Origin: Parasphingorhabdus sp.
GTDB lineage: Bacteria > Pseudomonadota > Alphaproteobacteria > Sphingomonadales > Sphingomonadaceae
Reading direction: 5' to 3'
Assembly: GCF_036963805.1 (NCBI RefSeq)
Contig: NZ_JBALUN010000009.1
Location: 314-64,313 of the forward strand
DNA: 64,000 nt
Shown here piece after piece: positions 11,173-52,828 of this stretch (position 1 is its first letter; each line of letters opens with the position of its first letter). Made by a program: the position numbers and the translations under genes. The notes beneath the pieces were generated by a model. It had not been told where the DNA came from, made no database searches, and was given only the letters and a program-made list of their open reading frames with translations.

Positions 11173-11237
11173 ATGACCGCTTTGCGCCCTAGTTTCGGAC
11201 CTTCCGATGGAGTCCGCTAGATCCCGAAAGCCGACAT
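11173..11237. repeat. Imperfect palindromic intergenic element at the left edge of the cargo block
   Basis: ATGACCGCTTTGCGCCC...CGGACC followed by GTCCGCT-N10-AGCCGACAT. Confidence 0.5.
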
Positions 11238-11256
11238 AAGGCACCGCTCAAAAACC

Positions 11257-12018
11257 TCACTTCAAATGATCAAGCTTACCCAGCGACGAAGCGCGCAGGG
11301 CGGCGGTTACACGGTTGTCCACTTCCAGTTTCCTGAAGGCGCGTTCGAGATAGGTGATAACCGAGCTTTCCGAGAGACCCAGAATGTCGGCTATCACTCC
11401 GTTGCTCTTGCCTTGCGCCACCCATGACAAGATTTCTTTTTCGCGTCGCGATAGTTTGGCCGGGTCAGGAAGCTCCTGCATTAGCAGGTCGCAATATTTC
11501 AAATGGGCGAATTGGCAGCAGCTTTGAATCAAGTGAATTTCGCTATCAGCGATGACCGATCGGCCTATTTTGAAGCCCAAAGACACATAACCGTTTCGCC
11601 CGTTGGGGCCGAAGACCGGCACGTTTATTCCATCATCTACCCTGCTCGCAGCGTAGTCGAGATAAGCTTGCTCTTCATCATTCAGGCGACTGGTATATTC
11701 AATTTCGCGCCATTTTTGTGCCTTTGTGCCCGACATGACCAGTTGAATGGTCGGGTCGATGCCAATCGAACTCGCCGCCTCAAATCGTTCGACAAGCTCC
11801 TTTGGAAGGCCCAGACATACAACATTCACGCCGACATTCTCACCTGCACCTATATGCGGCAGGTGATGGTAAGCCATCGCCTTGATCTCCAGCTTGGCAG
11901 CTGTGCGCAGGCAAAGCGTGTTAAGGCCCGAAAACGTCAGGCAGCGCCCGACGTCGGCCAAAAATTCTGCGGTCAATGATACGACATCTGTATGGGGTTT
12001 TACTGACGGATCGCGCAT
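11257..12018 (-). CDS. LuxR-family regulator (autoinducer-binding domain + HTH), no luxI in window
   Basis: IDP, VPVFGPNG, LSRREKEILSWVAQGKSNGVIADILGLSESSV. Confidence 0.9.
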   Translation of the reverse strand: MRDPSVKPHTDVVSLTAEFLADVGRCLTFSGLNTLCLRTAAKLEIKAMAYHHLPHIGAGENVGVNVVCLGLPKELVERFEAASSIGIDPTIQLVMSGTKAQKWREIEYTSRLNDEEQAYLDYAASRVDDGINVPVFGPNGRNGYVSLGFKIGRSVIADSEIHLIQSCCQFAHLKYCDLLMQELPDPAKLSRREKEILSWVAQGKSNGVIADILGLSESSVITYLERAFRKLEVDNRVTAALRASSLGKLDHLK

Positions 12019-12239
12019 TCAGAAGCTCTAACCGGACTGAGGCAGAATTGAAATAGCGGCGAGTATCGGCAATTGCCTGCGAACAACCAGTAATGGTCAT
12101 CACCTCTTAGAATGTCGGAAGATTGCAGGACATTGGTTATTCCTATCTTGTGGTATGATAAGGTGAAAGAGGCCGCTGTGATCACTTGGCGCAAATTCGG
12201 CAGTTGATTTTGGACGGCGCAAGAAAGGGAGACAGCGAT

Positions 12240-12629
12240 ATGATTGCATCTAGATGGGCAGCCTTTTCAGCTACATTTGCAGCTTTTGGCATTTTTGCGC
12301 AATCCGCATCCGCACAATATGCGCCTGACCGCTATGGCTATTGCCAGCAACGCGCGGCGGCGATTTCCGGTTATCGCGGACCGGTGCCAGATCGGTATCT
12401 TCCCGGCGGAGTCCTGGATGGTGCTGCCAGAGGTGCCGCAGTTTCGGGCATCGGCGGACTGATTTTCGAAAAGGACAAGAAAAAACGGAAACGCAATGTC
12501 CGGCGCGGCGCGGCAATTGGTGCCATTGTCGGTGCCATCAAGCGCGGCAATGCGAAAAAGAAACAGCGCCGGGCGGCGCGCCTTTATAGACTGGAACTGG
12601 ACGCATGTATGCGCGGAGGAAGATATTGA
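12240..12629 (+). CDS. Secreted glycine-zipper protein
   Basis: Signal peptide, GAARGAAVSGIGG and GAAIGAIVGAI, two Cys. Confidence 0.7.
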   Translation: MIASRWAAFSATFAAFGIFAQSASAQYAPDRYGYCQQRAAAISGYRGPVPDRYLPGGVLDGAARGAAVSGIGGLIFEKDKKKRKRNVRRGAAIGAIVGAIKRGNAKKKQRRAARLYRLELDACMRGGRY

Positions 12630-12631
12630 TC

Positions 12632-12985
12632 ATGTTTTATTTCACAAATTTTCACAAATCCATGGCCGCCGCAATCGCCGCATCGGCCCTGTTTATCTCA
12701 CCCTTGCAAGCGCAGGAGGAAACGGAAGAAGCCAACCCATATGGCCTTTCCTCGGCCGAGTCTGTCGATCTGAAAGCTTTAACCTGCTGGGATGTTGTGA
12801 CGCTCGCCGAAGAAGACCGCGCTTTCACTATGACGATGCTTTACGGCTATGTAATGGGCACGCAGGGAAAATCGGAAATAAAACCACGGGACATTCAGGT
12901 GGCGATTGTGACCACCATGACCAAATGCGTTGATACGCCCGACGCAAAAGTGCTGGATGTGCTGAAAGAGCAGATGTCGCATTGA
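12632..12985 (+). CDS. HdeA/HdeB-like periplasmic chaperone
   Basis: Signal peptide; TCWD...KCVDTPDAKVLD two-Cys pattern. Confidence 0.6.
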   Translation: MFYFTNFHKSMAAAIAASALFISPLQAQEETEEANPYGLSSAESVDLKALTCWDVVTLAEEDRAFTMTMLYGYVMGTQGKSEIKPRDIQVAIVTTMTKCVDTPDAKVLDVLKEQMSH

Positions 12986-13498
12986 TCAGGCGGCAGCAAG
13001 CGCCAGATAAATCTGATTGGCAAATAACAACGCAAAGGCAGCAGCCGCGCCCACAAGGCCGCGAACGAAGCGTTTGCGCTTGCTTTCGCGCAGTTCCGAT
13101 ATTTTCAAAAGCTCATAGGCAACCTCGTCAATTGGATCGCATTCTCTGGCAGCTTTGATCAAATTCTCCGCCGAGCCATAGCGTTCGGGATGCAGGAAGA
13201 ATACATGCGTCCGGTACTCCTCTTGCCCATCGGAACCGACCGTCTTGCGCGCAGGATATAGAACATATCCGAACAATGCGATTGGCAATATGACAATCAG
13301 CCATGCGATAACGACATTGGTGAGGCCAATATTGGTGTCTTGCGTCAGGGCATTGCCAATCTGCCCGATGACGTTGAGCGCGAAAATATACCCGACACCC
13401 ACAATCTGAGCCTTGGTATCATAGGCGCGGACGGAATTTTGTGCCTCATCAAGACTGTCTTTCAACAGGCTGAATATCTCGTTGCTCGCTTTGGCCAT
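12986..13498 (-). CDS. Pycsar effector-family (PycTM-like) membrane protein
   Basis: VRAYDTKAQI + TM + TM + YELLKISELRESKRK + TM architecture. Confidence 0.6.
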   Translation of the reverse strand: MAKASNEIFSLLKDSLDEAQNSVRAYDTKAQIVGVGYIFALNVIGQIGNALTQDTNIGLTNVVIAWLIVILPIALFGYVLYPARKTVGSDGQEEYRTHVFFLHPERYGSAENLIKAARECDPIDEVAYELLKISELRESKRKRFVRGLVGAAAAFALLFANQIYLALAAA

Positions 13499-13519
13499 GG
13501 ACGATTGTTATCCTTTTTT

Positions 13520-14101
13520 TCACTGGGGAGGAAATTTTGCCAGAATAACGCGTACATCGGCTGCTGCGGTTTCCTGTTCGCCGGACAATTCTCTGCTGCT
13601 CAATGTCTTCGTTCCTTTCCCGTGCCAGACAGGGCTGCGGCGTGCTACATCATATATGTCCACCGAAAGCGTGCCTTCGGTATAGTCTCTGACGACGGTT
13701 CGTGTCGGTGTGATGTTTCTCTGTATTGTCGGGAAATGGGGGTTACCCCAAGCCCAATCGAGTCGGTTCTGCCAAAAATAGTCCGGAATCTCGGTGGTTT
13801 TCGTTCCGTCTCTTGTGCCGATTGTAAAGGAAACGGCAAAATCGGCCGCTTTGACATCATCGGTAAACTGATAACCTCGCGCTGTGAGTTCGCTCTTTAT
13901 GGACTGCGCCACCCGAGATTGCACAATGGCCGGGATATTGCGGTTACCGAAAGAGACCATGGGTTCCTCCCCGGCCCAGGCGAATGTCCTATAGGCGGCG
14001 AAATTCTGGGATGGGTCGCTATCTGTAGTAATACGACCAGTGGTCGCACACCCCGCCAGAAAAAGGGAGCCTACTACCAGCGCTGCACTAAATTTTCTCA
14101 T
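13520..14101 (-). CDS. DUF4136 lipoprotein
   Basis: LAGC lipobox; FAAYRTFAW; YTEGTLSVDIYDVARRSPVWHG. Confidence 0.85.
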   Translation of the reverse strand: MRKFSAALVVGSLFLAGCATTGRITTDSDPSQNFAAYRTFAWAGEEPMVSFGNRNIPAIVQSRVAQSIKSELTARGYQFTDDVKAADFAVSFTIGTRDGTKTTEIPDYFWQNRLDWAWGNPHFPTIQRNITPTRTVVRDYTEGTLSVDIYDVARRSPVWHGKGTKTLSSRELSGEQETAAADVRVILAKFPPQ

Positions 14102-14126
14102 ATCTTCCTCCTAAAAAAATGCCGGA

Positions 14127-15344
14127 TCACACTGACAGAAAAAACTGTATCAAGAACGAATTGGCGACATCGACAAAGAATGCACCGACCAGCGGTACGA
14201 TAATAAAGGCCGTGGGGGCCGGACCGTGCGATTTGGCAACGGCGGACATATTGGCAATGGCGGTTGGCGTTGCACCAAGGCAGAAACCGGCAAAGCCAGC
14301 GCTCAAAACGGCGGCAAAATAATTGCGGCCCATCACCGGAAAAACCACGAACAGGATAAAGAGCACTGCAACAGCCACCTGCGCAAACAGCAGGATAAAC
14401 AAAGGCCCCGCCAGATCGGCCACAGCCCAGAGCTGCATCCCCATTAGCGACATGGCAATGAAGAGCCCTAGCGAGAAATCCGAAATGACAGCAAGCGCGC
14501 GGCTTTCGGCTGGCCAGGAGATGTTTTTGAAAAGCGCCGGGACGCTATTTGTCATCAATATGGCGACCATCATGCAGGACACGAAAAGCGGTAGCTTCAA
14601 TTGGGCGGCCATCAGAGCCTCATTGAGCATATAGCCAAATATCATGGCGACATGGATGACCAGCATCGAGCTCATGATACCCAGATGGGTAACTGTTGCC
14701 GTATCCTCTTTTGCATATTCGACGCCGACCAGCAGATCGCCGTCTTCCGTCGATTCCAGCTTGTTTCTGGCAAGCAGGAATTTGGCTATCGGTCCGCCAA
14801 TCAGGCTTGCAACCACCAGGCCGATTGTCGCAGCAGCAACCCCGATTTCGAGCGCATTGGCTATGCCTTGCTGTTCGGCAATGGCGGGTGCCCAGGCAAT
14901 CGCCGTTCCATGCCCGCCCGCGAGCGAAGCAGAACCAACAAGCACACCTATGCCGCCAGGCTGACCGATTGCCAATGCACTGGCCACACCAACAATATCC
15001 TGAATAGCGAGGTAGCCTAGCGTTAACGCAAGTAAGAGCAGCAGCGGTTTGCCGCCGGATAGAAGCTGCGCAAACCGGGCATTTATGCCGATGGCCGTGA
15101 AAAAATAGATGAGCAATACATCACGAACATAGAGATCGTAGCTAAGCTCCCAGCCGGTTGTAGCGTAGATCAGCAAGGCGGCGATCGAGGCAAAAATACC
15201 GCCTGTAACCGGCTCGGGGATATTGTATTTTTGCAGGAACGCGCTGCGGGCCGTTACCTTGATACCAGCAAACAAAACAACAAAGCCGAGCGTGAGAGCA
15301 ATGAAGCTGTCAATCTCAATAATATTGCCTTCCAGAAAATTCAT
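14127..15344 (-). CDS. gltS: Sodium/glutamate symporter
   Basis: YNIPEPVTGG, SLAGGHGTAIAW, GATPTAIANM. Confidence 0.92.
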   Translation of the reverse strand: MNFLEGNIIEIDSFIALTLGFVVLFAGIKVTARSAFLQKYNIPEPVTGGIFASIAALLIYATTGWELSYDLYVRDVLLIYFFTAIGINARFAQLLSGGKPLLLLLALTLGYLAIQDIVGVASALAIGQPGGIGVLVGSASLAGGHGTAIAWAPAIAEQQGIANALEIGVAAATIGLVVASLIGGPIAKFLLARNKLESTEDGDLLVGVEYAKEDTATVTHLGIMSSMLVIHVAMIFGYMLNEALMAAQLKLPLFVSCMMVAILMTNSVPALFKNISWPAESRALAVISDFSLGLFIAMSLMGMQLWAVADLAGPLFILLFAQVAVAVLFILFVVFPVMGRNYFAAVLSAGFAGFCLGATPTAIANMSAVAKSHGPAPTAFIIVPLVGAFFVDVANSFLIQFFLSV

Positions 15345-16792
15345 TCGACCGCTTCATCCTTTGGCTCAGGAGGAGCAATCACTCTCCAGTTTCCGCCCAG
15401 CGCGAGGTTGATTTCCAGATACTGGTTCAGCTGCGCGCGCTTGAGAGCCAGTAAGTTGCTTTGCGCGCCAAAGAGCCGCTGCTGCACCGAAAGCAGGTCG
15501 ATCAGGTCGATCTCGCCTTCCTTGTATTGCAGGTTGGAAAGGCGCAGAGCGTTTTCTGTTTCCTTAGTAGCGGTTTCAAGCGCGATCCGGCGGCGACCAA
15601 GGAAAACACCGCGATCAAGAGCCGTTTCGACTTCGGTGAACGCCTTGATTGCGGCATCGGCATAAAGGGCGACCGTTGCCTCAACATCAGCATCGGCAAT
15701 ATCGACCTGTGCATCCCTTCTGCCATTGTCAAAGATCGGCGCGAGAATGTTGCTGGCCAGCGTCCAGACGATATTGGCCGGGTCCAGAATATTGCCCAAA
15801 TCGGTTGACGATGTGCCTAATGTGCTGGTGAGGCTAAAGCTGGGCAAGCGCGCAGCTTCTGATACCTTCCGATTGTTAATCGCGGCAGCGATATTGCGCT
15901 CCGCCGCGATAATATCTGGCCTTCGCTGCAATAGTTCGGAAGGAAGACCCTCGCCGGGTGGCGCTGGAACAGCAGGAAGCGCGTTCGGTGTTTTCAAATC
16001 TGCGCCGGGATAGCGGCCCAACAGCCCCTCCAGTGCGCGTAAGGCTTCCAGCTTGCCATTCTTGGCCGTCTGCAGCGTATCCACCGAGGTCGCAAAATCG
16101 GATTCCGTCAGCGAAACGTCATAAGCTGATGCAAAGCCATAGCGATAGCGCAAGCGAACAATACGGCGGATTTCCGTGAGTGCATCAACAATGCCCTGCG
16201 CGACTTCAACCTGCTGCTCGGCCTCGATCACCAGAAAATAGGATTGTGCAACGGCAGCCGCTATCGAATATTGCGAAAAGAGATAATCCGCCTCTGCAAC
16301 ACGCGCGCTTTCAATTGCCGCTTGCTGTCCTGCTTCGATACGCCCCCAGACATCGATTTCCCAATTGGCCTGAAGCCCGGCCGAGAATGATGTGATGCCA
16401 CTATTTTCGAACGACTGGTTGCGCTGAACACCGCCGGACGCATCGACCGAGGGAAGCTTTGCCGAGCCGGCCTGACGTATGACAGCGCGGGCGCGGCGGA
16501 CGTTTGCTGCAGCCGCTTGCAAATTGCGGTTGTTCGCCATTGCTTCTTCCACAAGTTCCATAAGCTGCGGGTCGTTAAACTCTGCGATCCAGCCGGGGCG
16601 GACGTCGCCGACCTTCTCGCGGATGGAAGTCCAGTCGGCTGGTTGGACCGGCAAGCTTGCTTGCGCCGAAGTGGCCGTTTCCGCGTCTGTCGCCGGTTTG
16701 ATGGTGGCGCATCCACCAACGGCCAGCGCCCCCAATGTCAGCGCGGCGAGGCCAGAGCGCGAGAAAGATTTCGAGAAAGCGGACTGTTTCAT
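15341..16792 (-). CDS. TolC/NodT outer-membrane efflux lipoprotein
   Basis: VGGC lipobox; PSELLQRRPDIIAAE; EINLALGGNW. Confidence 0.92.
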   Translation of the reverse strand: MKQSAFSKSFSRSGLAALTLGALAVGGCATIKPATDAETATSAQASLPVQPADWTSIREKVGDVRPGWIAEFNDPQLMELVEEAMANNRNLQAAAANVRRARAVIRQAGSAKLPSVDASGGVQRNQSFENSGITSFSAGLQANWEIDVWGRIEAGQQAAIESARVAEADYLFSQYSIAAAVAQSYFLVIEAEQQVEVAQGIVDALTEIRRIVRLRYRYGFASAYDVSLTESDFATSVDTLQTAKNGKLEALRALEGLLGRYPGADLKTPNALPAVPAPPGEGLPSELLQRRPDIIAAERNIAAAINNRKVSEAARLPSFSLTSTLGTSSTDLGNILDPANIVWTLASNILAPIFDNGRRDAQVDIADADVEATVALYADAAIKAFTEVETALDRGVFLGRRRIALETATKETENALRLSNLQYKEGEIDLIDLLSVQQRLFGAQSNLLALKRAQLNQYLEINLALGGNWRVIAPPEPKDEAVE

Positions 16793-19700
16793 GATGCTGC
16801 ACTCTCTTCCGCTTTGATGCGGAAAAACATGGAGTAGAAGACCGGAACAACAACAAGCGTCAGCAGCGTCGCGAAGGTAAGACCGAAGACCAGTACGACG
16901 GCCATCGATTTGAAAAAGGCATCAAAGAAAAGCGGGATCACGCCAAGCACCGTGGTAAGCGAACCCATCATCACTGGACGGACACGGCTGGTAGCGGAGT
17001 CAATCACTGCATCAAATCGCGGTTTGCCCTCTCGTATCTCCAAATCCATCTGGTCCACGAGGACGATGGCATTTTTAATCAGCAGCCCGGACAGCGATAG
17101 CAGCCCAAGGATAGCCATGAACTCCATCGCGGTGCCGGTTGCCAATAGTCCGAACACCACGCCGATCAGCGACAGCGGAACAGTCAACCAGATGATCAGC
17201 GGCTGCTTGATCGCGTTGAATAGCACTACAACGACGAGAACCATGGCGAGGAAACCCATTGGCAATGTGCTTGCCAGACTACCGTTTGCTTCCGCGCTAT
17301 CACCAGATTCGCCATTCCATTTGAAGCTATAGCCTTCGGGCAAATCTATGGCTTCTATGTCGGGGCGCAGTCGTTCCTGCAATTCGCCCGCCAATTCGCC
17401 GGGTAGCGGGTCACTCTGCGCATTGATCGTCCAGACACGGTCCACACGGCGCAGGCGCGAATTGGTCCAGACTGTTTCAAACCTGTCGACCACTTCAAGT
17501 ATCGGAACGGATTTGCCAGTCGTGGAGCTGGTAATCTGAATACCGCGCAGCGCATTTGCATCCAGCCGCTCACGCTCTGGCGCACGTGCGATGATACGGA
17601 TCAGCTGATCGCCATCGCGATAGACGCCCACATCGCGGCCAGAGAAATTGGCGCGCAACGCATTGGCAAGGTCTTCGCGTGAAACACCCAGCCGCCTGCC
17701 GCTTTCGCCATTATAAACCGGCTGGATAACGCTCACCGGTTGCCGCCAGTCATCCTTGATGGAAATCGCGCCGCCATCCTTGGCCATGATGGCCTTTGCC
17801 TTGTCTGCAAGCAGGCGAAGGACAGTGGGGTCAGGTCCGGAAAATTCCGCCTCGATTTTCGAGCCGCCGCCGGGGCCAAGCTGGAATTGCCATACCTTCG
17901 CCTGTGCATCGGGATAGTTGGCATCAATATGTTGCTGTATCTTGGGCAGGATACCTGCGATCAGATCATAGTCATCGACCTTGATCAGAAATTGGCCATA
18001 GGCGGAACTTGGTGACTCTGGACTATAGACCAGCATGTAGCGCAGAGTTCCCATGCCCACGAGGGTCTGGACGTCCTTCACGCCATCCAGTTTTGATACG
18101 AACGTCTCCAGCTTCGCCATTTGCGCGTCGGTCTTGGCCAGCGCAGTTCCTTCAGGCTGTGAGAAATCGACAACAATCTGAGGTGAGGTTGAAGGTGGGA
18201 AAAAGCCGGGTTTCACCATGCTGAAGCTCAATACCGAGAGCACGAATAATCCAGCCACAACCATCACAGTTAGCTTGGACTTGCCAAGCACAAAGCGCAT
18301 GAATTTCTTATAGCGCACAAAGAAAGGATGCTCCGGTTTTTCCTCGATCTCGCCATCTTTCGCTTCGGGGAAGAGAATATCGGCGAAGAGCGGCACGGCG
18401 GTAATCGCAAAAATCCAGCTGAACAGCAGCGAGACCATCACGACCCAGAACAGGTCTCCCGTAAATTCAGCCGTCGACCCCGGCGCAAAGCCAATAGGCG
18501 CGAAAGCAATAATACCAACCAGCGTGCCGCCCAGCAGCGGCCATCTGGTGCGCCTGACAATATCCTTGGCAATATCGAGCTTCTTTTGCCCTTGCTGCGT
18601 GCCGACCAATATACCCTCGGTCACCACAATCGCATTGTCCACCAGCATACCCAGCGCGATAATCAGCGCGCCGAGCGAGATGCGGTGCATCGGAATATCG
18701 ATGAAATACATGGTGCCCAGCGTCGCTGCGATGGTGAGCAGCAGGACAGCACCGATCACAATTGCAGAGCGCAATCCCATAAAGAAGAATAACGTCACAA
18801 GAACGATCAGCAGGGCAACCACAACATTGATCGCAAAGTCGGCGACTGCCGTTTCAACTATCTTCCCCTGATGGTAATATTCATGCACTTCGATGCCGAC
18901 AGGGCGCAGCGATTTTGTCTCTTCGAGCTTGGCGTCAATGCCCTTACCCATCTTGGCGACATTCGCGCCAGAAATATTGGAAATGCCAATCGCGATGGCC
19001 GGTTTGCCGTTAAAGCGGATAATCATGCTCGGCGGATCGACATAGTCCCGTGTAACGCTTGCAACATCGCGAAGATAAACAATGCGGCCAGACGTAGCAG
19101 TTGAAACAACCAGATTCTTGATCGCATCAACAGACTGTATCTCGCCGGTTGGCTGAAATTTCAGGCGGCGGTCGCCGAGTTTGATGTCTCCAGCAGGCAC
19201 AACCGAATTTTGCTTGGCAAGGTCGCCGTAAATCTGATCAACCGAGACGCCCAGCGCATTGGCCTGCTCGCGGGAAATTTCGACATAGATTGCCTCTTGC
19301 CGCATGCCCAGCGGCTGGACTTTGGCGACATCTTCAACGGAAAGCAGGTCGGTGCGCAGTGCTCTGACATATTCATATAGCTCGGCTGGCGAAAACCCGT
19401 CGCCAGTGACGAGATAGTAAAGCCCGTAAACATCCCCAAAATCATCATTGACCTGAGATGGTTCAGCGCCCGGCGGGAGCCTGTTCTGGACATCATTCAC
19501 CTTGTTGCGTAGCTTGCTCCAGATCAGCGCCAGGTCCGATTTTTCAGGAGAGAAACGATAGCGAATATCGACGCTTATCTCTGACCGTCCAGCCGAAGAA
19601 ACCGAACGTATCTCTTTCACTTCCTGCATTTGCTGGACTGCGCTTTCCAGCGTCTCGGTCACTTCATTGGCTACTTCTTCGGGTGTTGCGCCGGGATATT

Positions 19701-19848
19701 GCGTTACAATTTGGGCGGTGCGGATGGTAAATTCCGGGTCTTCAAATCGCGCGATATTTTGATAACTATACCAGCCAGCCGCAAGACAAAGCGCAATGAC
19801 AATGAAGCAGATCAAACGGTTCTTTATCGAAAATTCTGCAAGGTCCAT
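16789..19848 (-). CDS. AcrB/AcrD/AcrF-family RND permease
   Basis: ARFEDPEFTIR; ALGMLVDNAIVV; IKNAIVLVD; SRVRPV. Confidence 0.96.
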   Translation of the reverse strand: MDLAEFSIKNRLICFIVIALCLAAGWYSYQNIARFEDPEFTIRTAQIVTQYPGATPEEVANEVTETLESAVQQMQEVKEIRSVSSAGRSEISVDIRYRFSPEKSDLALIWSKLRNKVNDVQNRLPPGAEPSQVNDDFGDVYGLYYLVTGDGFSPAELYEYVRALRTDLLSVEDVAKVQPLGMRQEAIYVEISREQANALGVSVDQIYGDLAKQNSVVPAGDIKLGDRRLKFQPTGEIQSVDAIKNLVVSTATSGRIVYLRDVASVTRDYVDPPSMIIRFNGKPAIAIGISNISGANVAKMGKGIDAKLEETKSLRPVGIEVHEYYHQGKIVETAVADFAINVVVALLIVLVTLFFFMGLRSAIVIGAVLLLTIAATLGTMYFIDIPMHRISLGALIIALGMLVDNAIVVTEGILVGTQQGQKKLDIAKDIVRRTRWPLLGGTLVGIIAFAPIGFAPGSTAEFTGDLFWVVMVSLLFSWIFAITAVPLFADILFPEAKDGEIEEKPEHPFFVRYKKFMRFVLGKSKLTVMVVAGLFVLSVLSFSMVKPGFFPPSTSPQIVVDFSQPEGTALAKTDAQMAKLETFVSKLDGVKDVQTLVGMGTLRYMLVYSPESPSSAYGQFLIKVDDYDLIAGILPKIQQHIDANYPDAQAKVWQFQLGPGGGSKIEAEFSGPDPTVLRLLADKAKAIMAKDGGAISIKDDWRQPVSVIQPVYNGESGRRLGVSREDLANALRANFSGRDVGVYRDGDQLIRIIARAPERERLDANALRGIQITSSTTGKSVPILEVVDRFETVWTNSRLRRVDRVWTINAQSDPLPGELAGELQERLRPDIEAIDLPEGYSFKWNGESGDSAEANGSLASTLPMGFLAMVLVVVVLFNAIKQPLIIWLTVPLSLIGVVFGLLATGTAMEFMAILGLLSLSGLLIKNAIVLVDQMDLEIREGKPRFDAVIDSATSRVRPVMMGSLTTVLGVIPLFFDAFFKSMAVVLVFGLTFATLLTLVVVPVFYSMFFRIKAEESAAS

Positions 19849-19859
19849 CTGCCCGCCCC

Positions 19860-20936
19860 CTACGGCTTGTAGGGACGGATTTTGTCGCCGTCATTTAAGT
19901 AGGCCGCACCAGCCGCCACGATGGTCTCGTCTTGTTTCAGGCCGCTAACAACCGGAACGCTCTCGCCAACACCTGTGCTGACCTCGACAGCGCGTTTCTT
20001 GACGGTCATTTTTTTTGTATCGACGACCCACACAAACCGCTTTTTGCCATCAGACAGAATCGCGCCGAGCGGCACCATGACCTGATTCTCTGCCTTTTCC
20101 CCTTCCAGCAGCGCACGGCTAGTAAAGACTGTGCCAGTCATGCCGGGCAGGACCGACAGGCTTGCAGGAGGTGTGAACGCAAACTTCACCTGAAATGTCT
20201 GGGATTCGGTGTCACCCTGAGTCGTAACCGAACGAAATACGCCTGGGATTTTTCTATCCGGGGCTGCACCCAATATCACATAGGATTCAGATGGCGGTCT
20301 ATTCGCCAGCCGTGGAACCAGACTGGCCGGCACGCTAACGACCGCTTCAACGGTGCCAACCGATTGCAGCGTGACGATGTCCTGATTGGGGCTGACATTT
20401 TCAAACTGTTCCACCAGTTTTTCGGCAACGATCCCGGAGAACGGCGCGCGTAGGATGGTGTCCGACAAATCCTTGCGCGCGCTGTCCAGTTGCGCTTGCG
20501 CAACGTCGCGCTGCGCCCGCCGTTGATCCACGGCAATGCGCGCGATGGCGTCTTCTTCGAGCAATCTTCGGGCACTTTGATACTCGGAGTTCGCAGAAGC
20601 ATATTGTGCGCGGGCTGAGTTAACCGCATTGCGATACCGCCGATCGTCAAGCCGGGCGATAACCGCACCGCGTCTTAGCTGCTGACCTTCCCTGACCGGA
20701 AAGCGGGTCAATAGCCCGCTGACCTGAAAGGTGAGCGTCGATGACTTTCCGGCCTCTATAATCGCGGGGAAACTATTGTCGAATGTCTCACTGGCCGATG
20801 CAACGACATGCAGTTTTGCCGGACGGACGATTTCATCCTTCTTCTCTTCTCCGCCAGAGCAGGAGGCCAAGAGGGTGCAGCTTGCGATTGCAACAAAAAC
20901 GGGCTTCAGCCACGGCTGTTTATTCAATATATTCAA
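19860..20936 (-). CDS. RND periplasmic adaptor (membrane fusion protein)
   Basis: LASC lipobox; LRAPFSG; barrel-sandwich hybrid domain. Confidence 0.93.
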   Translation of the reverse strand: MNILNKQPWLKPVFVAIASCTLLASCSGGEEKKDEIVRPAKLHVVASASETFDNSFPAIIEAGKSSTLTFQVSGLLTRFPVREGQQLRRGAVIARLDDRRYRNAVNSARAQYASANSEYQSARRLLEEDAIARIAVDQRRAQRDVAQAQLDSARKDLSDTILRAPFSGIVAEKLVEQFENVSPNQDIVTLQSVGTVEAVVSVPASLVPRLANRPPSESYVILGAAPDRKIPGVFRSVTTQGDTESQTFQVKFAFTPPASLSVLPGMTGTVFTSRALLEGEKAENQVMVPLGAILSDGKKRFVWVVDTKKMTVKKRAVEVSTGVGESVPVVSGLKQDETIVAAGAAYLNDGDKIRPYKP

Positions 20937-21059
20937 AAGCCTATACCTTCCCAGCTTTGGCGATCACATAATATGAAGGTTGCCTGTTTTTACATGATAT
21001 AGCAATGTATCCTTTAGGGCCATTGGGCTAAGAGTAATGTCGGGGAGATTTACTACAAA

Positions 21060-21497
21060 ATGTTAATGCAATTGCTTGTTGGTTCTGCCCTGATTTCCGC
21101 AACCATCATTGTAGAGGTCGGTTTTATCGGCCTTGCGACAGTCGGCCTTACCAAAGCAGGCGCTTGGCTCGTTGAGGGCAGCAAGATCCTGAAATTGATG
21201 ATTTCACTGCTGGCAATTGTCTTGTGGATGCTTGCAGCGATCAGCATAGCCGTCTGGATTTGGGCTGCCGCGTTTCTGGCCTTAGGTCAATTCGGTGATT
21301 TGGAAACCGCACTTTATTTCTCGGTCGTCTCCATGACCACTTTGGGATATGGCGACATAGTAATCGGCAAGGAATGGCGTCTGCTCTCCGGCCTGATCGC
21401 GGCGAACGGCCTTATCCTGTTCAGCTTGACCACCGCTTTCCTGATTGAGTTTATCAACCAACTGCGAACGGCCCAATCAGATGCATTGAAGAATTGA
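21060..21497 (+). CDS. Two-TM potassium/ion channel family protein
   Basis: ALYFSVVSMTTLGYGD selectivity-filter motif. Confidence 0.88.
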   Translation: MLMQLLVGSALISATIIVEVGFIGLATVGLTKAGAWLVEGSKILKLMISLLAIVLWMLAAISIAVWIWAAAFLALGQFGDLETALYFSVVSMTTLGYGDIVIGKEWRLLSGLIAANGLILFSLTTAFLIEFINQLRTAQSDALKN

Positions 21498-21505
21498 GTT
21501 GTAGC

Positions 21506-21575
21506 AATGTCGGTTTTTTGCGCCCATGGTGGTCGAAACCGGACATTCCGCTCACGGCCCACTTTCAGCCATTCG
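21506..21575. repeat. Palindromic intergenic element at the right edge of the cargo block
   Basis: AATGTCGGTTT (21506-21516) / AAACCGGACATT (21536-21547); shares TTTGCGCCC with the 11173 element. Confidence 0.6.
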
Positions 21576-21811
21576 CGGATAGATTTTGGAAACAGTCATC
21601 ACAAGGTTGCTTAAGCGGAGGCATGCTGATTCGTCGTCGGTTCCGGCTGTCAGTGTGACCTTCGCTAACGCAGCCTTCACCATGACAAGTCTTTATACGA
21701 TGCAGCACTACTACGCCCTTATGATTGTTGAACTACCCTAAAAAGCTGCTTTTTAGCTGAACCCCACCGACGCAGTTGCATTTCCGCAGCTGCAATCAGG
21801 AGACGGGGTTC

Positions 21812-22789
21812 ATGCAAACCAACGCAGTCATCTCTATAACGCCATCGCGATTGGGCAGCATGCTGCGCACCGCCTTGGGCGCAGAAATTGCCGAATGGCT
21901 TGCTGAGCCGCAAGTCGTGGAAATCATGCTCAACCCGGATGGCCGGATATGGCTCGACCGGCTGGATACAGGCCTTGCCGAAACCTCTTCCTTTTTGAGC
22001 GCAGCCGACGGCGAACGTATCATCCGGTTGATAGCTCATCATGTCGGTGCGGAAGCGCATGCTGCATCGCCGCGTATTTCGGCAGAGCTTCCCGAAAGCG
22101 GCGAGCGGTTTGAAGGTTTATTGCCGCCGCTCGCCGCAGCTCCCTGTTTTGCCATCCGCAAACCCGCAGTTTCGGTATTCAGTCTCGATGATTATGTGGT
22201 GGCTGGGATCATGACCGATAGCCAAGCTGATGCGTTGCGTGACAGTGTTTCATCGCGCGCAAACATTCTGGTCGCAGGCGGAACTTCCACCGGGAAGACG
22301 ACATTGGTCAACGCGCTTCTCGCAGAGGTTGCCAAAACCGATGACCGTGTGGTGCTGATTGAAGATACCCGCGAACTACAATGCGCCGCGCCCAATCTGG
22401 TCGCGCTGCGCACCAAAGATGGCGTGACCTCACTATCCGACCTTGTCCGTTCCGCATTGCGTTTGCGGCCCGACCGCATTCCCATTGGCGAGGTGAGGGG
22501 AGCCGAAGCGCTCGACCTGCTCAAAGCCTGGGGCACGGGACATCCGGGCGGCGTTGGAACCATCCATGCCGGTTCGGCTTTGGGCGCGCTTCGCCGGATG
22601 GAGCAACTGATTCAGGAAGCGGTTATTACCGTGCCGCGCCCGCTCATCGCCGAAACCATCGATTTGATCGCCGTGCTTGCCGGGCGTGGATCGCAGCGCC
22701 GTTTGGTCGAGCTTAGCCAAGTAACCGGCCTCAATGACGCCGGCGACTATCAACTCACCCCGATTGGAGAACCATCCCATGACAATTAA
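21812..22789 (+). CDS. trbB: P-type conjugative ATPase TrbB
   Basis: AGGTSTGKTT; ALRLRPDRIPIGEVRG; AWGTGHPGG. Confidence 0.96.
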   Translation: MQTNAVISITPSRLGSMLRTALGAEIAEWLAEPQVVEIMLNPDGRIWLDRLDTGLAETSSFLSAADGERIIRLIAHHVGAEAHAASPRISAELPESGERFEGLLPPLAAAPCFAIRKPAVSVFSLDDYVVAGIMTDSQADALRDSVSSRANILVAGGTSTGKTTLVNALLAEVAKTDDRVVLIEDTRELQCAAPNLVALRTKDGVTSLSDLVRSALRLRPDRIPIGEVRGAEALDLLKAWGTGHPGGVGTIHAGSALGALRRMEQLIQEAVITVPRPLIAETIDLIAVLAGRGSQRRLVELSQVTGLNDAGDYQLTPIGEPSHDN

Positions 22790-23099
22790 AAAATCACGCC
22801 TGGTTTCATACGCGATCGCTGCCACGACATTGATCGCAATATCCACGCCCGCTTATGCATCGGGTTCAGGCATGCCGTGGGAAGCGCCCTTGGAATCTAT
22901 ATTGGAGTCTATTCAAGGTCCGGTTGCCAAGATCATGGCGGTGATCATCATTATCATAACCGGATTAACGCTTGCCTTTGGTGATACGGCGGGCGGCTTT
23001 CGGCGGCTGATCCAGATCGTCTTTGGTCTTTCGATTGCCTTTGCCGCATCCAGCTTCTTTCTCTCCTTCTTCTCCTTTGGTGGAGGGGCCGTAATCTGA
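22779..23099 (+). CDS. trbC: TrbC/VirB2 pilin
   Basis: GSGMPWEAPL...IQGPVAK...FGLSIAFAASSFF. Confidence 0.93.
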   Translation: MTIKKSRLVSYAIAATTLIAISTPAYASGSGMPWEAPLESILESIQGPVAKIMAVIIIIITGLTLAFGDTAGGFRRLIQIVFGLSIAFAASSFFLSFFSFGGGAVI

Positions 23100-23371
23100 T
23101 GGAAAACTCCTCCCCTGATTTTCCCGGATTAACGGTGCCCCTTCACCGTTCGCTCGCCGAGCCCATCCTGCTCGGCGGTGCACCCAGAGCCGTCGCCATC
23201 GCCAATGGTACCATCGCGGCGGCTCTGGGATTGGGGCTTCGCCTCTGGCTGGTGGGCCTTGCATTTGGCCTAATCGGTCATCTCGCCTCTGTCTGGGCCG
23301 CCAAACGCGACGTGCAATTTGTCGATGTTGTCCGCCGTCATCCCCGTTACCCCAGTTATCTAGGAGTTTGA
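23099..23371 (+). CDS. trbD: TrbD/VirB3
   Basis: PLHRSLAEPILLGGAPR. Confidence 0.92.
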   Translation: MENSSPDFPGLTVPLHRSLAEPILLGGAPRAVAIANGTIAAALGLGLRLWLVGLAFGLIGHLASVWAAKRDVQFVDVVRRHPRYPSYLGV

Positions 23372-25809: not shown

Positions 25810-25810
25810 A

Positions 25811-26560
25811 ATGAAAATCTGTAAATTTCGCACCCGTTGCATCGCATTGATGGCAGCCACAGCCTTGACGGTTCCAGTCATGCTACCTGCGCCAGCGCAC
25901 GCAGTGATTGTCTATGATCCCACCAACTATGCGCAAAATCTGCTGCAGGCGACGCGCGCGCTCGAACAGATCAGAAACCAGATCCAGTCGCTGCAAAATG
26001 AAGCACAATCGCTGCTCAACGAAGCGGCCAATCTCAAGAAATTGCCGAAGTCGGTTATGGCCGACGTCGATAAATCGGTACAGGCAACACAGGGCCTCCT
26101 CAAAGACGCGCAGCGCATTGCCTATGATGTCCAGAAGGTCGATGAGGCTTTTTCGAAACGTTACAGCCAGTCCAGTCTGACCGGTTCGAACGCCAAGCTG
26201 GTCGAGCTGGCGCGTGAACGCTGGAGCGATAGCATTGGCGGCTTTCAGGATGCGCTGCGCGTGCAGGCGGGCATTGTACAATCAATCGATCTGACACGCG
26301 CGAAGACGAATGATTTGATAACAAGCAGCCAGGGATCAGCGGGCGCATTGCAGGCCGCCCAAGCCGGCAATCAGTTGCAGGCTTTGCAGTTGAAGCAGCT
26401 TACCGACCTCACGGCGTTGCTAGCCGCCAATGGCCGCGCGCAAATACTGGATGCCGCAGCGAAAGCCAGCGCAAAAGCACAGGCACGCGAGCAATTCAAA
26501 CGCTTTCTCGGTAGCGAAAATAGCTATCAAAACTCAACCGTTCGCCTGTTTCGGAAGTGA
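25811..26560 (+). CDS. trbJ: TrbJ
   Basis: IVYDPTNYAQNLL; GALQAAQAGNQL. Confidence 0.93.
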   Translation: MKICKFRTRCIALMAATALTVPVMLPAPAHAVIVYDPTNYAQNLLQATRALEQIRNQIQSLQNEAQSLLNEAANLKKLPKSVMADVDKSVQATQGLLKDAQRIAYDVQKVDEAFSKRYSQSSLTGSNAKLVELARERWSDSIGGFQDALRVQAGIVQSIDLTRAKTNDLITSSQGSAGALQAAQAGNQLQALQLKQLTDLTALLAANGRAQILDAAAKASAKAQAREQFKRFLGSENSYQNSTVRLFRK

Positions 26561-26862
26561 ACGAAAAACGTCATCCGTTGCTGAAGCGTATGTTGATGGG
26601 AATGGCGGGCCTGGCGCTTGTAGTTGGCGTTGTCGCCGGTTTCTCCCGCACGGCCCAATTTCAGGAAGCAAGCAATACTGATAGCCGCCGGTCGGCCCCG
26701 CCTGATCCAATTTCTGTCGAACTGCGCCGTTGTTCGGCATTGCCGCACATGGAAGCAATGGATGACACCAAATGCCGCCGCGCCTGGACATTAAACCGGC
26801 AGCGCTTCTTTGGAAAATCAGAGGAATTGCTCTCCGATCTTCCCGATCGAAACAAGGAATAG
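26557..26862 (+). CDS. trbK: TrbK-like putative entry-exclusion protein
   Basis: ELRRC...CRRAWTLNRQRFFG, between trbJ and trbL. Confidence 0.8.
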   Translation: MNEKRHPLLKRMLMGMAGLALVVGVVAGFSRTAQFQEASNTDSRRSAPPDPISVELRRCSALPHMEAMDDTKCRRAWTLNRQRFFGKSEELLSDLPDRNKE

Positions 26863-26866
26863 CATT

Positions 26867-28827: not shown

Positions 28828-28829
28828 AT

Positions 28830-30967: not shown

Positions 30968-30977
30968 AGGAGCGTAT

Positions 30978-31202: not shown

Positions 31203-31293
31203 ATGCGCACACCGTACGCAATTGCATTGCAGTAAGATTTTATAAACCATTGGTTTTGCATCGAAATTGCTCCCCGACAAGGAGTAATTTCCG

Positions 31294-37541: not shown

Positions 37542-37976
37542 ATGAGTGACGGATCAAAGAACAATGAAGATCTTGCCGAAGACCGGACGGATCTTGCTGA
37601 TGATCGAACCGATTTGGCGGAGAAACGGACAGATTTCGCAGAAGACCGGACGGTTATGGCAAATGAACGAACCTTTGCCGGATGGATGCGAACAGGCTTG
37701 GCCGCTGTCGGAATCGGACTTGGTTTCAATGCCCTGTTTGGCGAGTTACAGCCCTTCTGGCTTCCACGCGGGATCGCTACTGCATTCATCCTGATCGGTG
37801 TTTTCATATTTTATGCGGCACAGAAAAACGGATGCGCGGTTCATGAAAGACTGGAATCGCATAGCTCCGAACCATTGCCCGGCGCAAATCTGCGTGCGAC
37901 CGCTATGGCAATGAGCACAGCCAGCCTTTTGCTTGTCTTCGGATTATGGTTGATGGAAGTGGAAAGCGGAGGATAG
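37542..37976 (+). CDS. DUF202/YidH membrane protein
   Basis: RTVMANERTFAGWMRTGLA. Confidence 0.9.
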   Translation: MSDGSKNNEDLAEDRTDLADDRTDLAEKRTDFAEDRTVMANERTFAGWMRTGLAAVGIGLGFNALFGELQPFWLPRGIATAFILIGVFIFYAAQKNGCAVHERLESHSSEPLPGANLRATAMAMSTASLLLVFGLWLMEVESGG

Positions 37977-43259: not shown

Positions 43260-43267
43260 TCGAGATT

Positions 43268-49880: not shown

Positions 49881-49898
49881 CCGCTAGCATTATCACAT

Positions 49899-49913: not shown

Positions 49914-49987
49914 CAACAAAACGTCATGCGGTGGCAACTATTCCGCCTGTCGTCGGTTGTTGCGGGAGATCGGGGAGAAAAAGCCAA

Positions 49988-50497
49988 ATGTTTTCAGATG
50001 ACACAACAATCAACCTGATCCTCAAGATCGCAATCCTTGGACCGGTCGCGCTGGTCTGGGTAGTGATCAACGTGCGTGTTGTCGGATTGCGCTCATTCTC
50101 CAAAATGACCGCCTTCGATTTTGTAACGACGGTGGCAATCGGATCACTGCTGGCGACCGCGATGACGGCTAGTTCCTGGCCGGGCTATTTGCAGGCAGTG
50201 GGCGGAATCAGTGCCTTGCTGCTTGCCCAATTTGTCATCAGCAAATTTCGCAGGGCATCGGATAGCGCCAAAGACGCTATATCCAATGATCCCGTTTGGC
50301 TGTTCAGGGAGGGGGAATTTCTGGAAGACAACATGGACTGTGCAAGGATTACCAGAGACGATCTTTTCGGGAAAATGCGCGAGGCAAACGCGCTCAAGAT
50401 TTCCGATGTTCACGGTATCATCCTCGAACCCACTGGTGATATTTCGGTGCTCCATGGCGGGGAACCGGATAATGAAATTCTGCCGGGCAGGGATTGA
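49988..50497 (+). CDS. DUF421/YetF membrane protein (second copy)
   Basis: GLRSFSKMTAFDFVTTVAIGS; LEPTGDISVL; GCAAC-N16-GGTT at 49934-49958. Confidence 0.9.
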   Translation: MFSDDTTINLILKIAILGPVALVWVVINVRVVGLRSFSKMTAFDFVTTVAIGSLLATAMTASSWPGYLQAVGGISALLLAQFVISKFRRASDSAKDAISNDPVWLFREGEFLEDNMDCARITRDDLFGKMREANALKISDVHGIILEPTGDISVLHGGEPDNEILPGRD

Positions 50498-50624
50498 CCC
50501 GTCGGTTTCGGTGCAGTGGTAAATTGCATCCCTAGACTATTTTGGAACCATGCCGGACGTCGCTTGTTGGTGATTGCAGAGGGGCAATTTGTTGTCTCTT
50601 CATCTAGGAATGAAGGAATACAAA

Positions 50625-50891
50625 ATGAGTAAACTAACCATTTTCACCGCGACGGCAGCAGCTCTGGCTTTGACCGCATGTGCGCAAGAAGACACAAGCG
50701 GCGCAGAAACAGCAACGGAAGTAGAAGCGCAGGAAGCTGAAGTAGCAGCCGATGAGGCGGAAGCCGCCGCGGATGCAGCTCCGACCGAAGCTGGCGAAGA
50801 AGCCATGGAAGAAAAAGCCGAAGCGCTGGAAGACAAGGCCGATGTTCTTGAAGAGAAAGCCGACGAAGAAGAAGGCGTTCTCGCACAATAA
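50625..50891 (+). CDS. Small acidic Ala/Glu-rich lipoprotein
   Basis: LTAC lipobox; GGAAC-N16-TGTT at 50544-50568; terminator hairpin 50922-50950. Confidence 0.8.
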   Translation: MSKLTIFTATAAALALTACAQEDTSGAETATEVEAQEAEVAADEAEAAADAAPTEAGEEAMEEKAEALEDKADVLEEKADEEEGVLAQ

Positions 50892-50954
50892 TTCAGAATT
50901 TCCCTTTTGGGGAACTAGAGGAGGGCCAATCGAGCAATTCGGTTGGCCCTTTTG

Positions 50955-52217
50955 CTATTTATTGGCACCGACAACCTTCCTTGATCGCGCTTTCAGGTCA
51001 TTGATGTCCTTTTCGTGCGTGATCGAACTCTCGGCTCTCACCAGTGCATCGCGGCTGGTATCGTCTGCAGTGTCAGAAAATATTTCCGGCCACGAACTTT
51101 TAAGCGCGAGCAATACCAGCTGGATTCGCTGTTGCACCTCAATATTGCCGCGTCCGTCCCTTGCAATCTTCGTGAAAAAATCATCAAACAAGCTGGTGAG
51201 CTCGATTTCAGCACAATGCAGCCTGGAATAGCGAACATCAGGATCTGATAGTTCCGCGCGCGTTTCGGCGAAAGCCTCAAAACAGCGCAGGCCACTGTTG
51301 ATGACGGCGATCGCAGTACCCGGATCATTCACTGCGGGTGACAGCGCGCGGGATGCGATTTCGGAAAGCACAACCAGACCAAATCTGGGGTCCTGTTCAA
51401 AACTCCGGTCGCGTTCGATCAGGATTGTGTCCCGGAATGGCTGTGGATCAATCTCGAGCGGTTCGCCCCCTTCCAGATAGAGCAGCTCCCGGGCGGGATA
51501 AATCAGTTGGCCGGGATACACTGCCAGATGAACCGTCACGTCATGCTTGTCTGCTGCTTCCTGCAACGCGGCCATATCAATTGTGGTCACCAGCCCGCTT
51601 GCCGTCTCGCAGCTCACAGCCACCGCATCTTCCGGTACAGCCACCGCTGGTTCCGCGCCCAGGTAAGGGTTTTCACCATGCCATTTCAGCGCTTTTGATG
51701 CCGCCTTTTCCACCCGTTCAATCAGGTCGCGCATTCGTCCAAAGGTCGACAGCTGCTGGATCCAGCTGATCAGCGTGCCCGTAATGATGATGATCACCGC
51801 AATAGTCGCGAAAAACAGCAGAACACGGCCTTTGTCACCATAGAAATTCGCAGACAATCCGATGATGCCCACGATACTGAACAGAAAGGTTCCCAGAAAA
51901 GTCGACAGAGCATTCTGTGATCGGTCGTCGGCCAGCATCAGCGTAATGGTCCGCGGCGTGGCCGTATTGGTTGCGGAGCTATAGGCGGCAATCATGATCG
52001 AAACGGAAAAGGCGATCACCGCCAGCATGCTCGACGCCAATATCGTCAGCAAATCACCGACCGATCCGCTCGCGAGCTCCAGATCATAATTATAGGGAAT
52101 GAGCGGACCGATCCACCTGGCCGCGACCACCGCGACAATTGCGGCCAGGCAGAACAACAATGCCCGAAACCATATTCTTTCGGGCAGTCGAAAAATGAAT
52201 TTTTTGAACGCCAGCAT
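50955..52217 (-). CDS. DUF2254 membrane protein
   Basis: ILASSMLAV..FS.SIM; ATPR; LSTFLGTF; IASRALSPAVNDPGTA. Confidence 0.9.
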   Translation of the reverse strand: MLAFKKFIFRLPERIWFRALLFCLAAIVAVVAARWIGPLIPYNYDLELASGSVGDLLTILASSMLAVIAFSVSIMIAAYSSATNTATPRTITLMLADDRSQNALSTFLGTFLFSIVGIIGLSANFYGDKGRVLLFFATIAVIIIITGTLISWIQQLSTFGRMRDLIERVEKAASKALKWHGENPYLGAEPAVAVPEDAVAVSCETASGLVTTIDMAALQEAADKHDVTVHLAVYPGQLIYPARELLYLEGGEPLEIDPQPFRDTILIERDRSFEQDPRFGLVVLSEIASRALSPAVNDPGTAIAVINSGLRCFEAFAETRAELSDPDVRYSRLHCAEIELTSLFDDFFTKIARDGRGNIEVQQRIQLVLLALKSSWPEIFSDTADDTSRDALVRAESSITHEKDINDLKARSRKVVGANK

Positions 52218-52828
52218 TGTACAGGACTTTCTGAGTTTGACCGCGGTTTCGGAGCGGGTTCATGAAACTAGATCGTAGATGATAGGGGTTAAACCAAGCT
52301 ATTCAATGTTCGTTTCATCAAGAGGGTTTTTTCCTGGCACGAATTTTGCGAAATCCGCCTGCGCCGTTCCGACATAGAATCTCATTTCGATAGCGAATGT
52401 CGGACTTGGAGTGAAAAAGTTCCGATGTGCTTACAGAAAGACTTGATGCGAGACAGAAAGAACGTCTGGTTGTGCACCCGAAGTGGTCGACCAAACTGTC
52501 CGAAAACGGTCCACATTTTGCTGTTTGTCTTGATCACTTTAGGTTTACGCTTAGCCAATTCGTTCCTACTCTCGGCATTGATTTCAGAACTCCAAATGGC
52601 CATCCAAAAACCACAATTGCAAGGTGTTTCAGGAACCCAATCGATAGCTGGTGACCGTCCAAAGCCACACCCCCTTTCATGACTAAAAAGCGCCCCTGTC
52701 AGGTTAGTGTCTGGACAGCAACCCGCGCATCTTCAGGGCCGTGTTGTCATCCTGCGGATGAGAGTCTTGGATTTTTTCGCATCGACTAGAAATGGAAAGT
52801 TGGCCATAGAACCGAAATCAAAAAGCTG

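Follow-up and report, generated by a model that had tools for sequence, protein, structure and literature searches.

By what route did a 10.5-kb block of accessory genes, referred to in the following as cargo 1, come to lie between two backbone genes of a conjugative element in Parasphingorhabdus sp. (Sphingomonadaceae)? The stretch analyzed here, which we call the window, is the whole of a 64,000-nt segment of contig NZ_JBALUN010000009.1 (assembly GCF_036963805.1, positions 314 to 64,313). Pfam scans identified it as a Trb-type alphaproteobacterial conjugative element, a Sphingomonadaceae integrative and conjugative element (ICE). The acquisition of cargo at ICE hotspots is largely unexplained beyond a few model elements. 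An initial annotation of the window had described five related palindromes, which were proposed to lie at every cargo boundary and to be the recombination sites of an integron-like capture system, possibly served by a pair of tandem recombinases. We find that only two of the five, both at cargo 1, belong to one family, a 65-nt sequence that we named repeat E. With moderate confidence, we favor the reading that repeat E is a recombination site, that the two sites in the window are a full and a deleted copy of it, that a 212-amino-acid tyrosine recombinase, YR212, is the likely enzyme, and that cargo 1 would have been captured in this way.

Two of the five palindromes belong to repeat E

All five palindromes were found where the initial annotation had placed them. 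Searching the genome with the sites at 11173 and 21506 brought up a real repeat family, repeat E, and the five palindromes were searched with R1, a sequence-only covariance model made from 21 copies of repeat E, with the site at 21506 left out of the training set. Two early nhmmer profiles had included site 21506 in training; their E-values for that site were circular and were not used. The palindrome at 11173-11237 (+ strand) is a complete copy of repeat E, 65 nt long (ATGACCGCTTTGCGCCC...CCCGAAAGCCGACAT), and was matched by R1 over 11165-11241 with a score of 54.3 bits and an E-value of 3.8e-16. It begins 29 nt past the copG stop codon at the left edge of cargo 1, about 20-40 nt inside that edge. 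Over 64 nt, including the variable center, it is 83% identical to a copy beside a tRNA-Ser gene in another genus, where the flanks are unrelated.

The palindrome at 21506-21547, on the same strand, begins about 10 nt past the stop codon of a K-channel gene and stops about 95-120 nt short of the right edge of cargo 1, before backbone homology resumes. Of repeat E, it retains 28 nt on the left and 13 nt on the right, including the GCGCCC core, while about 25 central nt are gone. The proposed relationship between these two sites was borne out, as the TTTGCGCCC that they share is the most conserved core of the repeat E family. A composite pattern, ATGWC..T3-6 GCGCCY..GAAASCNGACAT, was matched in the 3.9-Mb genome by just these two sites, with ~3e-5 matches expected for a pattern that was devised post hoc. 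Because this pattern is unique to the two sites, we take site 21506 to be an internally deleted copy of repeat E.

The other three palindromes gave no match to R1, even at an E-value of 10 with filters off. They are located in the 3' end of the integrase gene int2 (33708-33731; fold z-score -0.98), at the right edge of a general-stress island (TCCGACAT-N21-ATGTCGGA, 52351-52426; fold z-score -0.75) and 93 nt ahead of the luxR start, within the divergent promoter region of that gene (AATGTC-N12-GACATT, 12111-12134). The first two are best read as chance palindromes, and none of the three is a copy of repeat E or better than chance, so the notion of a single family marking every cargo boundary is not supported. 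Single-stranded hairpin stability was clearly above that of shuffled sequences for none of the five (z -0.75 to -1.93). The caution, voiced from the start, that a 7-mer alone says little was justified: the window contains 34 occurrences of ATGTCSG, against 18.3 +/- 4.4 in dinucleotide shuffles, and with a genome-wide rate of 24.7 per 64 kb the excess is mild (Poisson p = 0.04). Exact inverted 7-mer pairs within 100 nt occur twice in the window (21507/21540 and 52369/52397), with 0.48 expected (p = 0.08), and there are 29 such pairs in the whole genome.

The palindrome at 12111-12134 sits between the gene for the LuxR-type regulator (start 12018, minus strand) and an open reading frame at 12186, and may be an operator of that regulator.

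Sequence rather than structure is conserved in repeat E

Repeat E measures 64-65 nt from ATGTC to GACAT in nearly every copy, across genera, and conservation ends sharply at both motifs. The consensus of 90 copies consists of ATGTCnGCTTTGCGCCCCAATnTCGGTCATT, about 18 variable nt and CCyGAAAGCnGACAT. An 11-bp arm (ATGTCCGCTTT) is followed by an 8-bp center (GCGCCCCA) and by an inverted variant of the arm (ATTTCGGTCAT), and a third arm (GAAAGCGGACAT), which is the first arm inverted, is found about 35 bp further on. The termini of the repeat form an 11-nt imperfect terminal inverted repeat. In its sequence architecture, the consensus has the layout of tyrosine-recombinase core sites, with two inverted arms around a spacer, and repeat E thus reads like a site for an enzyme of this class.

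No hairpin covariation was seen in repeat E: the outer arms and terminal stem were paired in 63.6% of cells, compared with a mean of 63.8% in shuffled data. RNAalifold returned no consensus structure. In the absence of both covariation and a predicted fold, it is the sequence, and not a hairpin, that is conserved. An Rfam search of 11130-11270 gave nothing at an E-value of 10 or below, and no description of repeat E was found in the literature when it was searched by sequence words and by topic.

Repeat E is common in the family and clustered in mobile DNA

Repeat E was present in 244 of the 301 genomes sampled from the family (about 81%), representing 103 of 112 genera. Elsewhere in the class, it was found in 11 of 250 alphaproteobacterial genomes, with 1-3 copies each. 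These large surveys scored the best 14-17 candidates per genome, and the copy numbers in them are therefore lower bounds. Full counts in four genomes gave 6, 10, 15 and 25 copies, visibly clustered and located in islands. The Parasphingorhabdus genome itself has about 26 copies, all of them intergenic and most of them 3' of genes or between convergent genes. Seven of the 26 lie in two ICEs, the one in the window and a sister ICE, which together make up 3.3% of the genome (p = 1.6e-5). The sister ICE (C1:838 to about 40000, loci L027 and L028) has a backbone that is 79-84% identical to that of the window ICE by blastn. Other copies were found in a MobA/MobL island (C1:604-617 kb) and on small contigs.

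At 29 loci examined in other genomes, the neighbors of repeat E included integrases, serine recombinases with DUF2924, AlpA and Abi proteins, together with ordinary accessory genes. Arrays with 1-4 genes between successive copies occur in genome G266 and at C1:606-615 kb. An arrangement in which a MOBQ relaxase gene (MobA_MobL plus helicase) is followed by a small gene, encoding DUF6118 in G266, and then by a copy of repeat E 60-70 nt downstream was seen at least four times in G266 (for example, at L160:14100-17934); a similar arrangement occurs once in the Parasphingorhabdus genome (C4:124881-128063).

A small tyrosine recombinase is linked to repeat E

YR212 was first encountered in G266, by way of shared flanks, as a 212-residue open reading frame that matches the catalytic Phage_integrase domain only. 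The residues R..K..HxxR..H..Y are present in its sequence, and there are weak matches to Xer and FimB/E-type models. When 30 YR212 loci from 30 genomes were inspected, 18 had repeat E within 160 nt of the gene, where the chance expectation is ~0.003 per locus (p about 1e-37). The positions were constant: one copy on the same strand lies 17-155 nt upstream of the gene, and often a second, inverted copy on the opposite strand lies 24-33 nt after its stop codon. The downstream copy shares an arm with the terminal hairpin of the YR212 gene; such copies are weak singly (E-value about 1e-3) and are convincing only through their constant position.

Of 300 family genomes, 99 have YR212, and repeat E is present in 95 of those (Fisher p = 6.5e-7). 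Two E-YR212-E units in G266 are 94% identical over 867 bp, and both ends of the identical segment fall inside E cores. The gene is common on alphaproteobacterial plasmids, including those of Rhizobiaceae and Acetobacteraceae, where it is annotated just as "tyrosine-type recombinase/integrase"; an intact YR212 is encoded, for instance, on a plasmid of Sphingopyxis macrogoltabida (WP_054590652.1). In the sister ICE, the copy of repeat E that follows the relaxase gene (C1:7167-7246) is directly followed in turn by a YR212 remnant, comprising residues 2-37 (36 codons) at 64% identity.

On the Sphingopyxis macrogoltabida plasmid NZ_CP012701.1 (locus L195:1-1871), tandem genes annotated as "site-specific integrase" and "tyrosine-type recombinase/integrase" are located 3 kb from YR212, which shows that two types of recombinase can reside on the same plasmid.

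Repeat E at the junctions of cargo 1 and of related elements

The extent of cargo 1 was established by comparison with the sister ICE. By blastn, window positions 8752-11133 aligned with C1:25231-27616 and positions 21666-31231 with C1:27723-37287. Since the flanks align and the sister ICE has only 106 bp (C1:27617-27722) in place of the intervening DNA, window 11134-21665 is an insert, and the hotspot of the sister is empty. The breakpoints are at about 11134-11155 on the left and about 21640-21666 on the right; a looser alignment placed them at ~11155 and ~21640. On the left, the insert meets copG (10728-11144, + strand), a ribbon-helix-helix gene that is the last backbone gene before the hotspot and adjoins traG in related ICEs too. 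On the right, trbB (21776-22789, + strand; Pfam T2SSE) is the first backbone gene past it. In related ICEs, cargo is regularly found in the copG-trbB gap, a hotspot that measures 49-193 bp when empty and from 0.5 to >8 kb when filled.

Cargo 1 carries about 10 genes on both strands, including a regulator of its own. According to Pfam, they encode a LuxR-type regulator, an HdeA-like protein, a DUF4136 protein, a Na/glutamate symporter, a resistance-nodulation-division (RND) efflux pump with outer membrane (OMP) and membrane fusion (MFP) components, and the K-channel. A search of 300 family genomes for nucleotide relatives of 11150-13500, which might have indicated the source of the block, found none apart from repeat E itself. 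We also considered that site 21506 might be diverged backbone sequence homologous to the empty site of the sister ICE, and rejected this, as the local alignment was matched by 167 of 500 shuffles.

The earlier idea that the palindromes are recombination sites survives for 11173 and 21506, which are plausible joints in view of their junction positions and the breaks in homology, and fails for the other three. Four of the seven ICE copies in the Parasphingorhabdus genome lie within 140 nt of a backbone gene (rough hypergeometric p = 0.001), namely after the relaxase gene and after int2 in the sister ICE, and after copG and before trbB in the window. In four Acetobacteraceae ICE loci with differing cargo (L079, L082, L084 and L085), a copy of repeat E marks the exact point, about 500 nt upstream of trbB, at which the backbones become homologous again, and one of these ICEs has a further copy 270 nt after copG. 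Among about 90 copies compared, many pairs of loci share one flank only, with homology stopping at the edge of repeat E or in its GCGCCCC core.

A proposed model for the capture of cargo 1

In the model that we favor, the 10.5-kb acid-resistance and efflux block would have entered the copG-trbB hotspot through YR212-type recombination at E sites, and the two same-strand copies would be the joints left by this capture event. The YR212 gene would later have been lost from the genome and one of the joints would have decayed, leaving sites that are now orphaned. The tandem P4-type integrases, meanwhile, would serve integration of the ICE at tRNA-Arg and not recombination at repeat E. That YR212 cuts repeat E, and that cargo 1 arrived in this manner, we infer from the comparisons described above.

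The picture of the window is corrected to one in which two relic sites bracket a single cargo block, with the recombinase gone, and in which neither the stress island nor the tandem integrases are part of the repeat E system. Repeat E and YR212, a short conserved site and a minimal tyrosine recombinase that are both common in the mobile DNA of sphingomonads, would offer a concrete and testable mechanism for module shuffling. More tentatively, the two might constitute a module-exchange system, not previously described, that operates in ICEs, islands and plasmids of Alphaproteobacteria and is akin to integrons or pdif modules but acts on multi-gene blocks. Sites 11173 and 21506 would then be the joints on either side of a 10.5-kb "cassette" acquired by capture, and any incoming plasmid with YR212 could excise cargo 1 or swap it.

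A number of observations weigh against this model. To begin with, all of the evidence for recombination at repeat E is comparative, and the per-genome presence and absence of repeat E and YR212 were tallied by eye from long tables. There is no intact YR212 in the Parasphingorhabdus genome. Most copies of repeat E do not adjoin YR212, and 12 of the 30 YR212 loci had no repeat E at an E-value < 0.01. Where YR212 is enclosed by an inverted pair of E copies, recombination between them would give inversion, not excision or capture. Site 21506 is weak by the unbiased model, R1 aligning its right arm alone with an E-value of 0.35.

The junctions themselves leave room for doubt as well. The backbones of the four Acetobacteraceae ICEs are 86-93% identical, and the copies at their junctions may consequently represent a single inherited event. 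Alignments run through the conserved core of repeat E whatever the point of exchange, so the crossover points cannot be placed exactly. Because the empty hotspot of the sister ICE contains no repeat E, a landing-pad copy at the hotspot is assumed, not seen. Finally, repeat E does not mark the cargo breakpoints of related ICEs in general, with just 8 matches in 0.98 Mb of sequence from 55 ICE loci, and a copy is missing altogether from most related ICEs whose copG-trbB hotspot is filled.

Alternative explanations

A different view, one that suits a good part of the same observations and that we consider rather unlikely, is that repeat E is a selfish repeat comparable to an insertion sequence (IS) or a miniature inverted-repeat transposable element (MITE). 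E-YR212-E would then move as a small unit bounded by 65-bp terminal inverted repeats. Solo copies, as relics of that unit or as derivatives of it that are non-autonomous, would collect in permissive 3' intergenic regions of mobile DNA and would have played no role in the arrival of cargo 1. This view would account for the inverted copies that flank the YR212 gene and for the state of that gene, which across genomes is present in multiple copies and is frequently a pseudogene or in fragments. It would also fit the gene-less, adjacent inverted E-E pairs at C15:32560-32719 and locus L044, the finding that copies within one genome are old and diverged, and the many filled ICE hotspots that lack repeat E. 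However, in none of 20 well-delimited copies was a target-site duplication found, and there was no DDE transposase among the flanking genes at the 29 loci in other genomes. From genus to genus the length and motifs of the repeat are kept, which points to selection and not to decay, and its recurrent placement right after backbone genes and at homology breaks also speaks against this view.

It is improbable that repeat E is instead a cis-acting site that does not recombine, for example an insulator, a terminator of a non-canonical kind or a site bound by a nucleoid protein or by one that the element encodes. Situated at module 3' ends, it would keep the transcription of cargo apart from the backbone operons. 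The location of nearly all copies 3' of genes or between convergent genes would suit such a site, as would a fixed length and the conservation of sequence rather than pairing. Intrinsic termination was considered and rejected, since no terminator-like site or T-run overlaps either copy in the window (fold z-scores -0.84 and -1.93), and there is neither excess fold stability nor an Rfam match. With just 6-25 copies per genome, repeat E is confined to mobile DNA, and a cis-acting site would leave unexplained both the fixed linkage to a recombinase gene and the one-sided breaks in homology.

Very little probability attaches to repeat E being an orphan oriT or nic site of MOBQ type, at two copies of which initiation and termination by a relaxase would mobilize the DNA between them. 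The core of the repeat, TTGCGCCC, resembles the MOBQ nick-region consensus NWACCNNTAAGTGCGCCCTYNN (PMC3832669), and copies are found just downstream of MOBQ relaxase operons at C1:606754 and C4:124881, the order in G266 being relaxase-DUF6118-E. Against this, the resemblance to the nick region TAAGTGCGCCCT, which in a MOBQ oriT follows an inverted repeat upstream of the relaxase operon, amounts to just 7 nt (TGCGCCC). Repeat E lies downstream of the relaxase genes, not upstream, and no E-like motif was present in the intergenic DNA upstream of the three MOBQ relaxase genes in the Parasphingorhabdus genome. The relaxase of the ICE itself is of a different type (PF03432 plus DUF3363).

The explanation offered by the initial annotation, in which the palindromes are attC- or attI-like sites of an integron-like capture system run by int1 and int2, is the least credible: although a copy of repeat E follows a P4-like integrase gene 14-45 nt past its stop codon in the sister ICE and two other genomes, and although the tandem int1/int2-type pair occurs three times in the Parasphingorhabdus genome, the int2 of the window has no such copy after it, the repeat shows no attC-like structural conservation, and Int1 and Int2 scored 19 and 33 bits with the IntI model TIGR02249, far below its cut-off of 265 bits. 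The model is largely refuted by phyletic independence, the very finding that had been named beforehand as speaking against the tandem recombinases: an Int2-type integrase is present in 26 of 300 family genomes (9%), compared with about 81% for repeat E, three genomes of the same genus have repeat E and no Int2, and at least one (G027) has Int2 without repeat E.

Comparison with known systems

Like integrons, the loci described here link a tyrosine recombinase to imperfect palindromes that recur between blocks of accessory genes, and some genomes have arrays with 1-4 genes between the repeats. In the strict sense, however, the term "integron-like" is not justified, there being no IntI-type integrase, no attC-type hairpin conserved in structure, and a cargo that consists of a multi-gene block. 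YR212 gave no match to TIGR02249 and lacks both the core-binding half and the IntI insertion, and repeat E is kept in sequence and length, not in hairpin structure. The blocks can measure 10 kb and have genes on both strands, whereas integron cassettes are mostly single, promoterless, co-oriented open reading frames, each with one attC. Repeat E occurs in mixed orientation and on both sides of the recombinase gene, in contrast to attI, which lies upstream of the integrase gene.

A similarity also exists to the pdif (dif) modules of Acinetobacter plasmids, which are acted on by XerC/XerD. In both cases, short sites bracket accessory modules and produce mosaics with homology ending at the sites. 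Repeat E is longer, at 65 bp with three copies of the arm, and the enzyme linked to it is element-borne, unlike the chromosomal Xer pair. A direct connection with Xer and dif was rejected: the best dif-like site of the genome, TAGGTTGATAATATATATTATGTTAAAT (C1:826355-826382), has a perfect XerD-type arm but does not resemble repeat E.

TnpI of Tn4430 is a small tyrosine recombinase without an arm-binding domain, and its site is located just upstream of its gene. This internal recombination site (IRS) has an inverted-repeat core with extra copies of the same motif alongside. The parallel with YR212 and repeat E is evident in the small size of the recombinase and in an upstream site with an inverted core and additional arm copies. 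TnpI differs in being larger (284 residues), in belonging to a Tn3-family transposon and in resolving cointegrates. For its part, YR212 has no transposase with it, has a second, inverted site after the gene, and is accompanied by many solo sites through cargo DNA.

Repetitive extragenic palindromic (REP) sequences and bacterial interspersed mosaic elements (BIMEs), together with REP-associated tyrosine transposases (RAYTs), resemble the present system in having an intergenic imperfect palindromic repeat 3' of genes, sometimes in inverted pairs, and an enzyme gene flanked by its own repeats. Repeat E differs in its 6-25 copies, as opposed to hundreds, in having no conserved hairpin and in having a tyrosine recombinase as the enzyme. 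A link to RAYTs was rejected, as the three Y1_Tnp genes of the Parasphingorhabdus genome are not flanked by repeat E. The FimB/FimE invertases, lastly, are similar to YR212 in size, at about 200 residues; YR212 has a weak full-length match to invertase subfamilies, and its gene has inverted sites around it. The score of 21 bits is nevertheless far below the cut-offs of about 220, and in the Fim system the sites are 9-bp repeats on either side of a promoter segment. Inversion was not in evidence here.

Other features of the window ICE

The first parts of the window ICE, as identified by Pfam, encode a DUF2840 protein, an S26 peptidase and an SLT transglycosylase. The relaxase gene follows at 5036-6781, and traG is located at 8708-10717, with hipBA (6797-8427) between the two. 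In the sister ICE, an 18-kb cargo occupies the position between relaxase and traG where the window ICE holds just hipBA. The nearest relative of copG in named genomes is found in a Sphingorhabdus metagenome-assembled genome, at 75% identity. Upstream of trbB, at ~21700-21740, there is a conserved box, CTACTACGCC...TTGTTG (also written CTACTACGCCCT...TTGTTG), that is kept in many related ICEs (loci L002-L020) and is probably the promoter or operator of the trb operon. The genes trbB to trbI extend over 21776-30967.

Past the trb genes, int1 and int2 (31294-33746, + strand) encode the tandem P4-like integrases, with Arm-DNA-bind_3 and Phage_integrase domains by Pfam. A third pair of this type is located at C7:113202-115509 (locus L026); it is 48-50% identical to the pair in the window and has no trb genes alongside. 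A strong copy of repeat E lies 2.9 kb from this third pair, at C7:118402-118485. In the window, int1 and int2 are followed by the 18-kb general-stress island, with genes for PhyR, an EcfG-type sigma factor and an HWE kinase. A DUF202 membrane-protein gene contains four tandem 21-nt units at 37568-37673, 65-79% identical to the reference unit and giving rise to a 7-residue repeat in the protein.

The only Rfam match above the gathering score in the window is a complete tRNA-Arg(CCG) gene at 52829-52905, on the minus strand. At 53031-53072, 125 nt beyond this tRNA, there is a 42-nt copy of its 5' half that is 93% identical. This arrangement looks like a host tRNA-Arg gene that was cut by the ICE, with a replacement copy brought in by the element.

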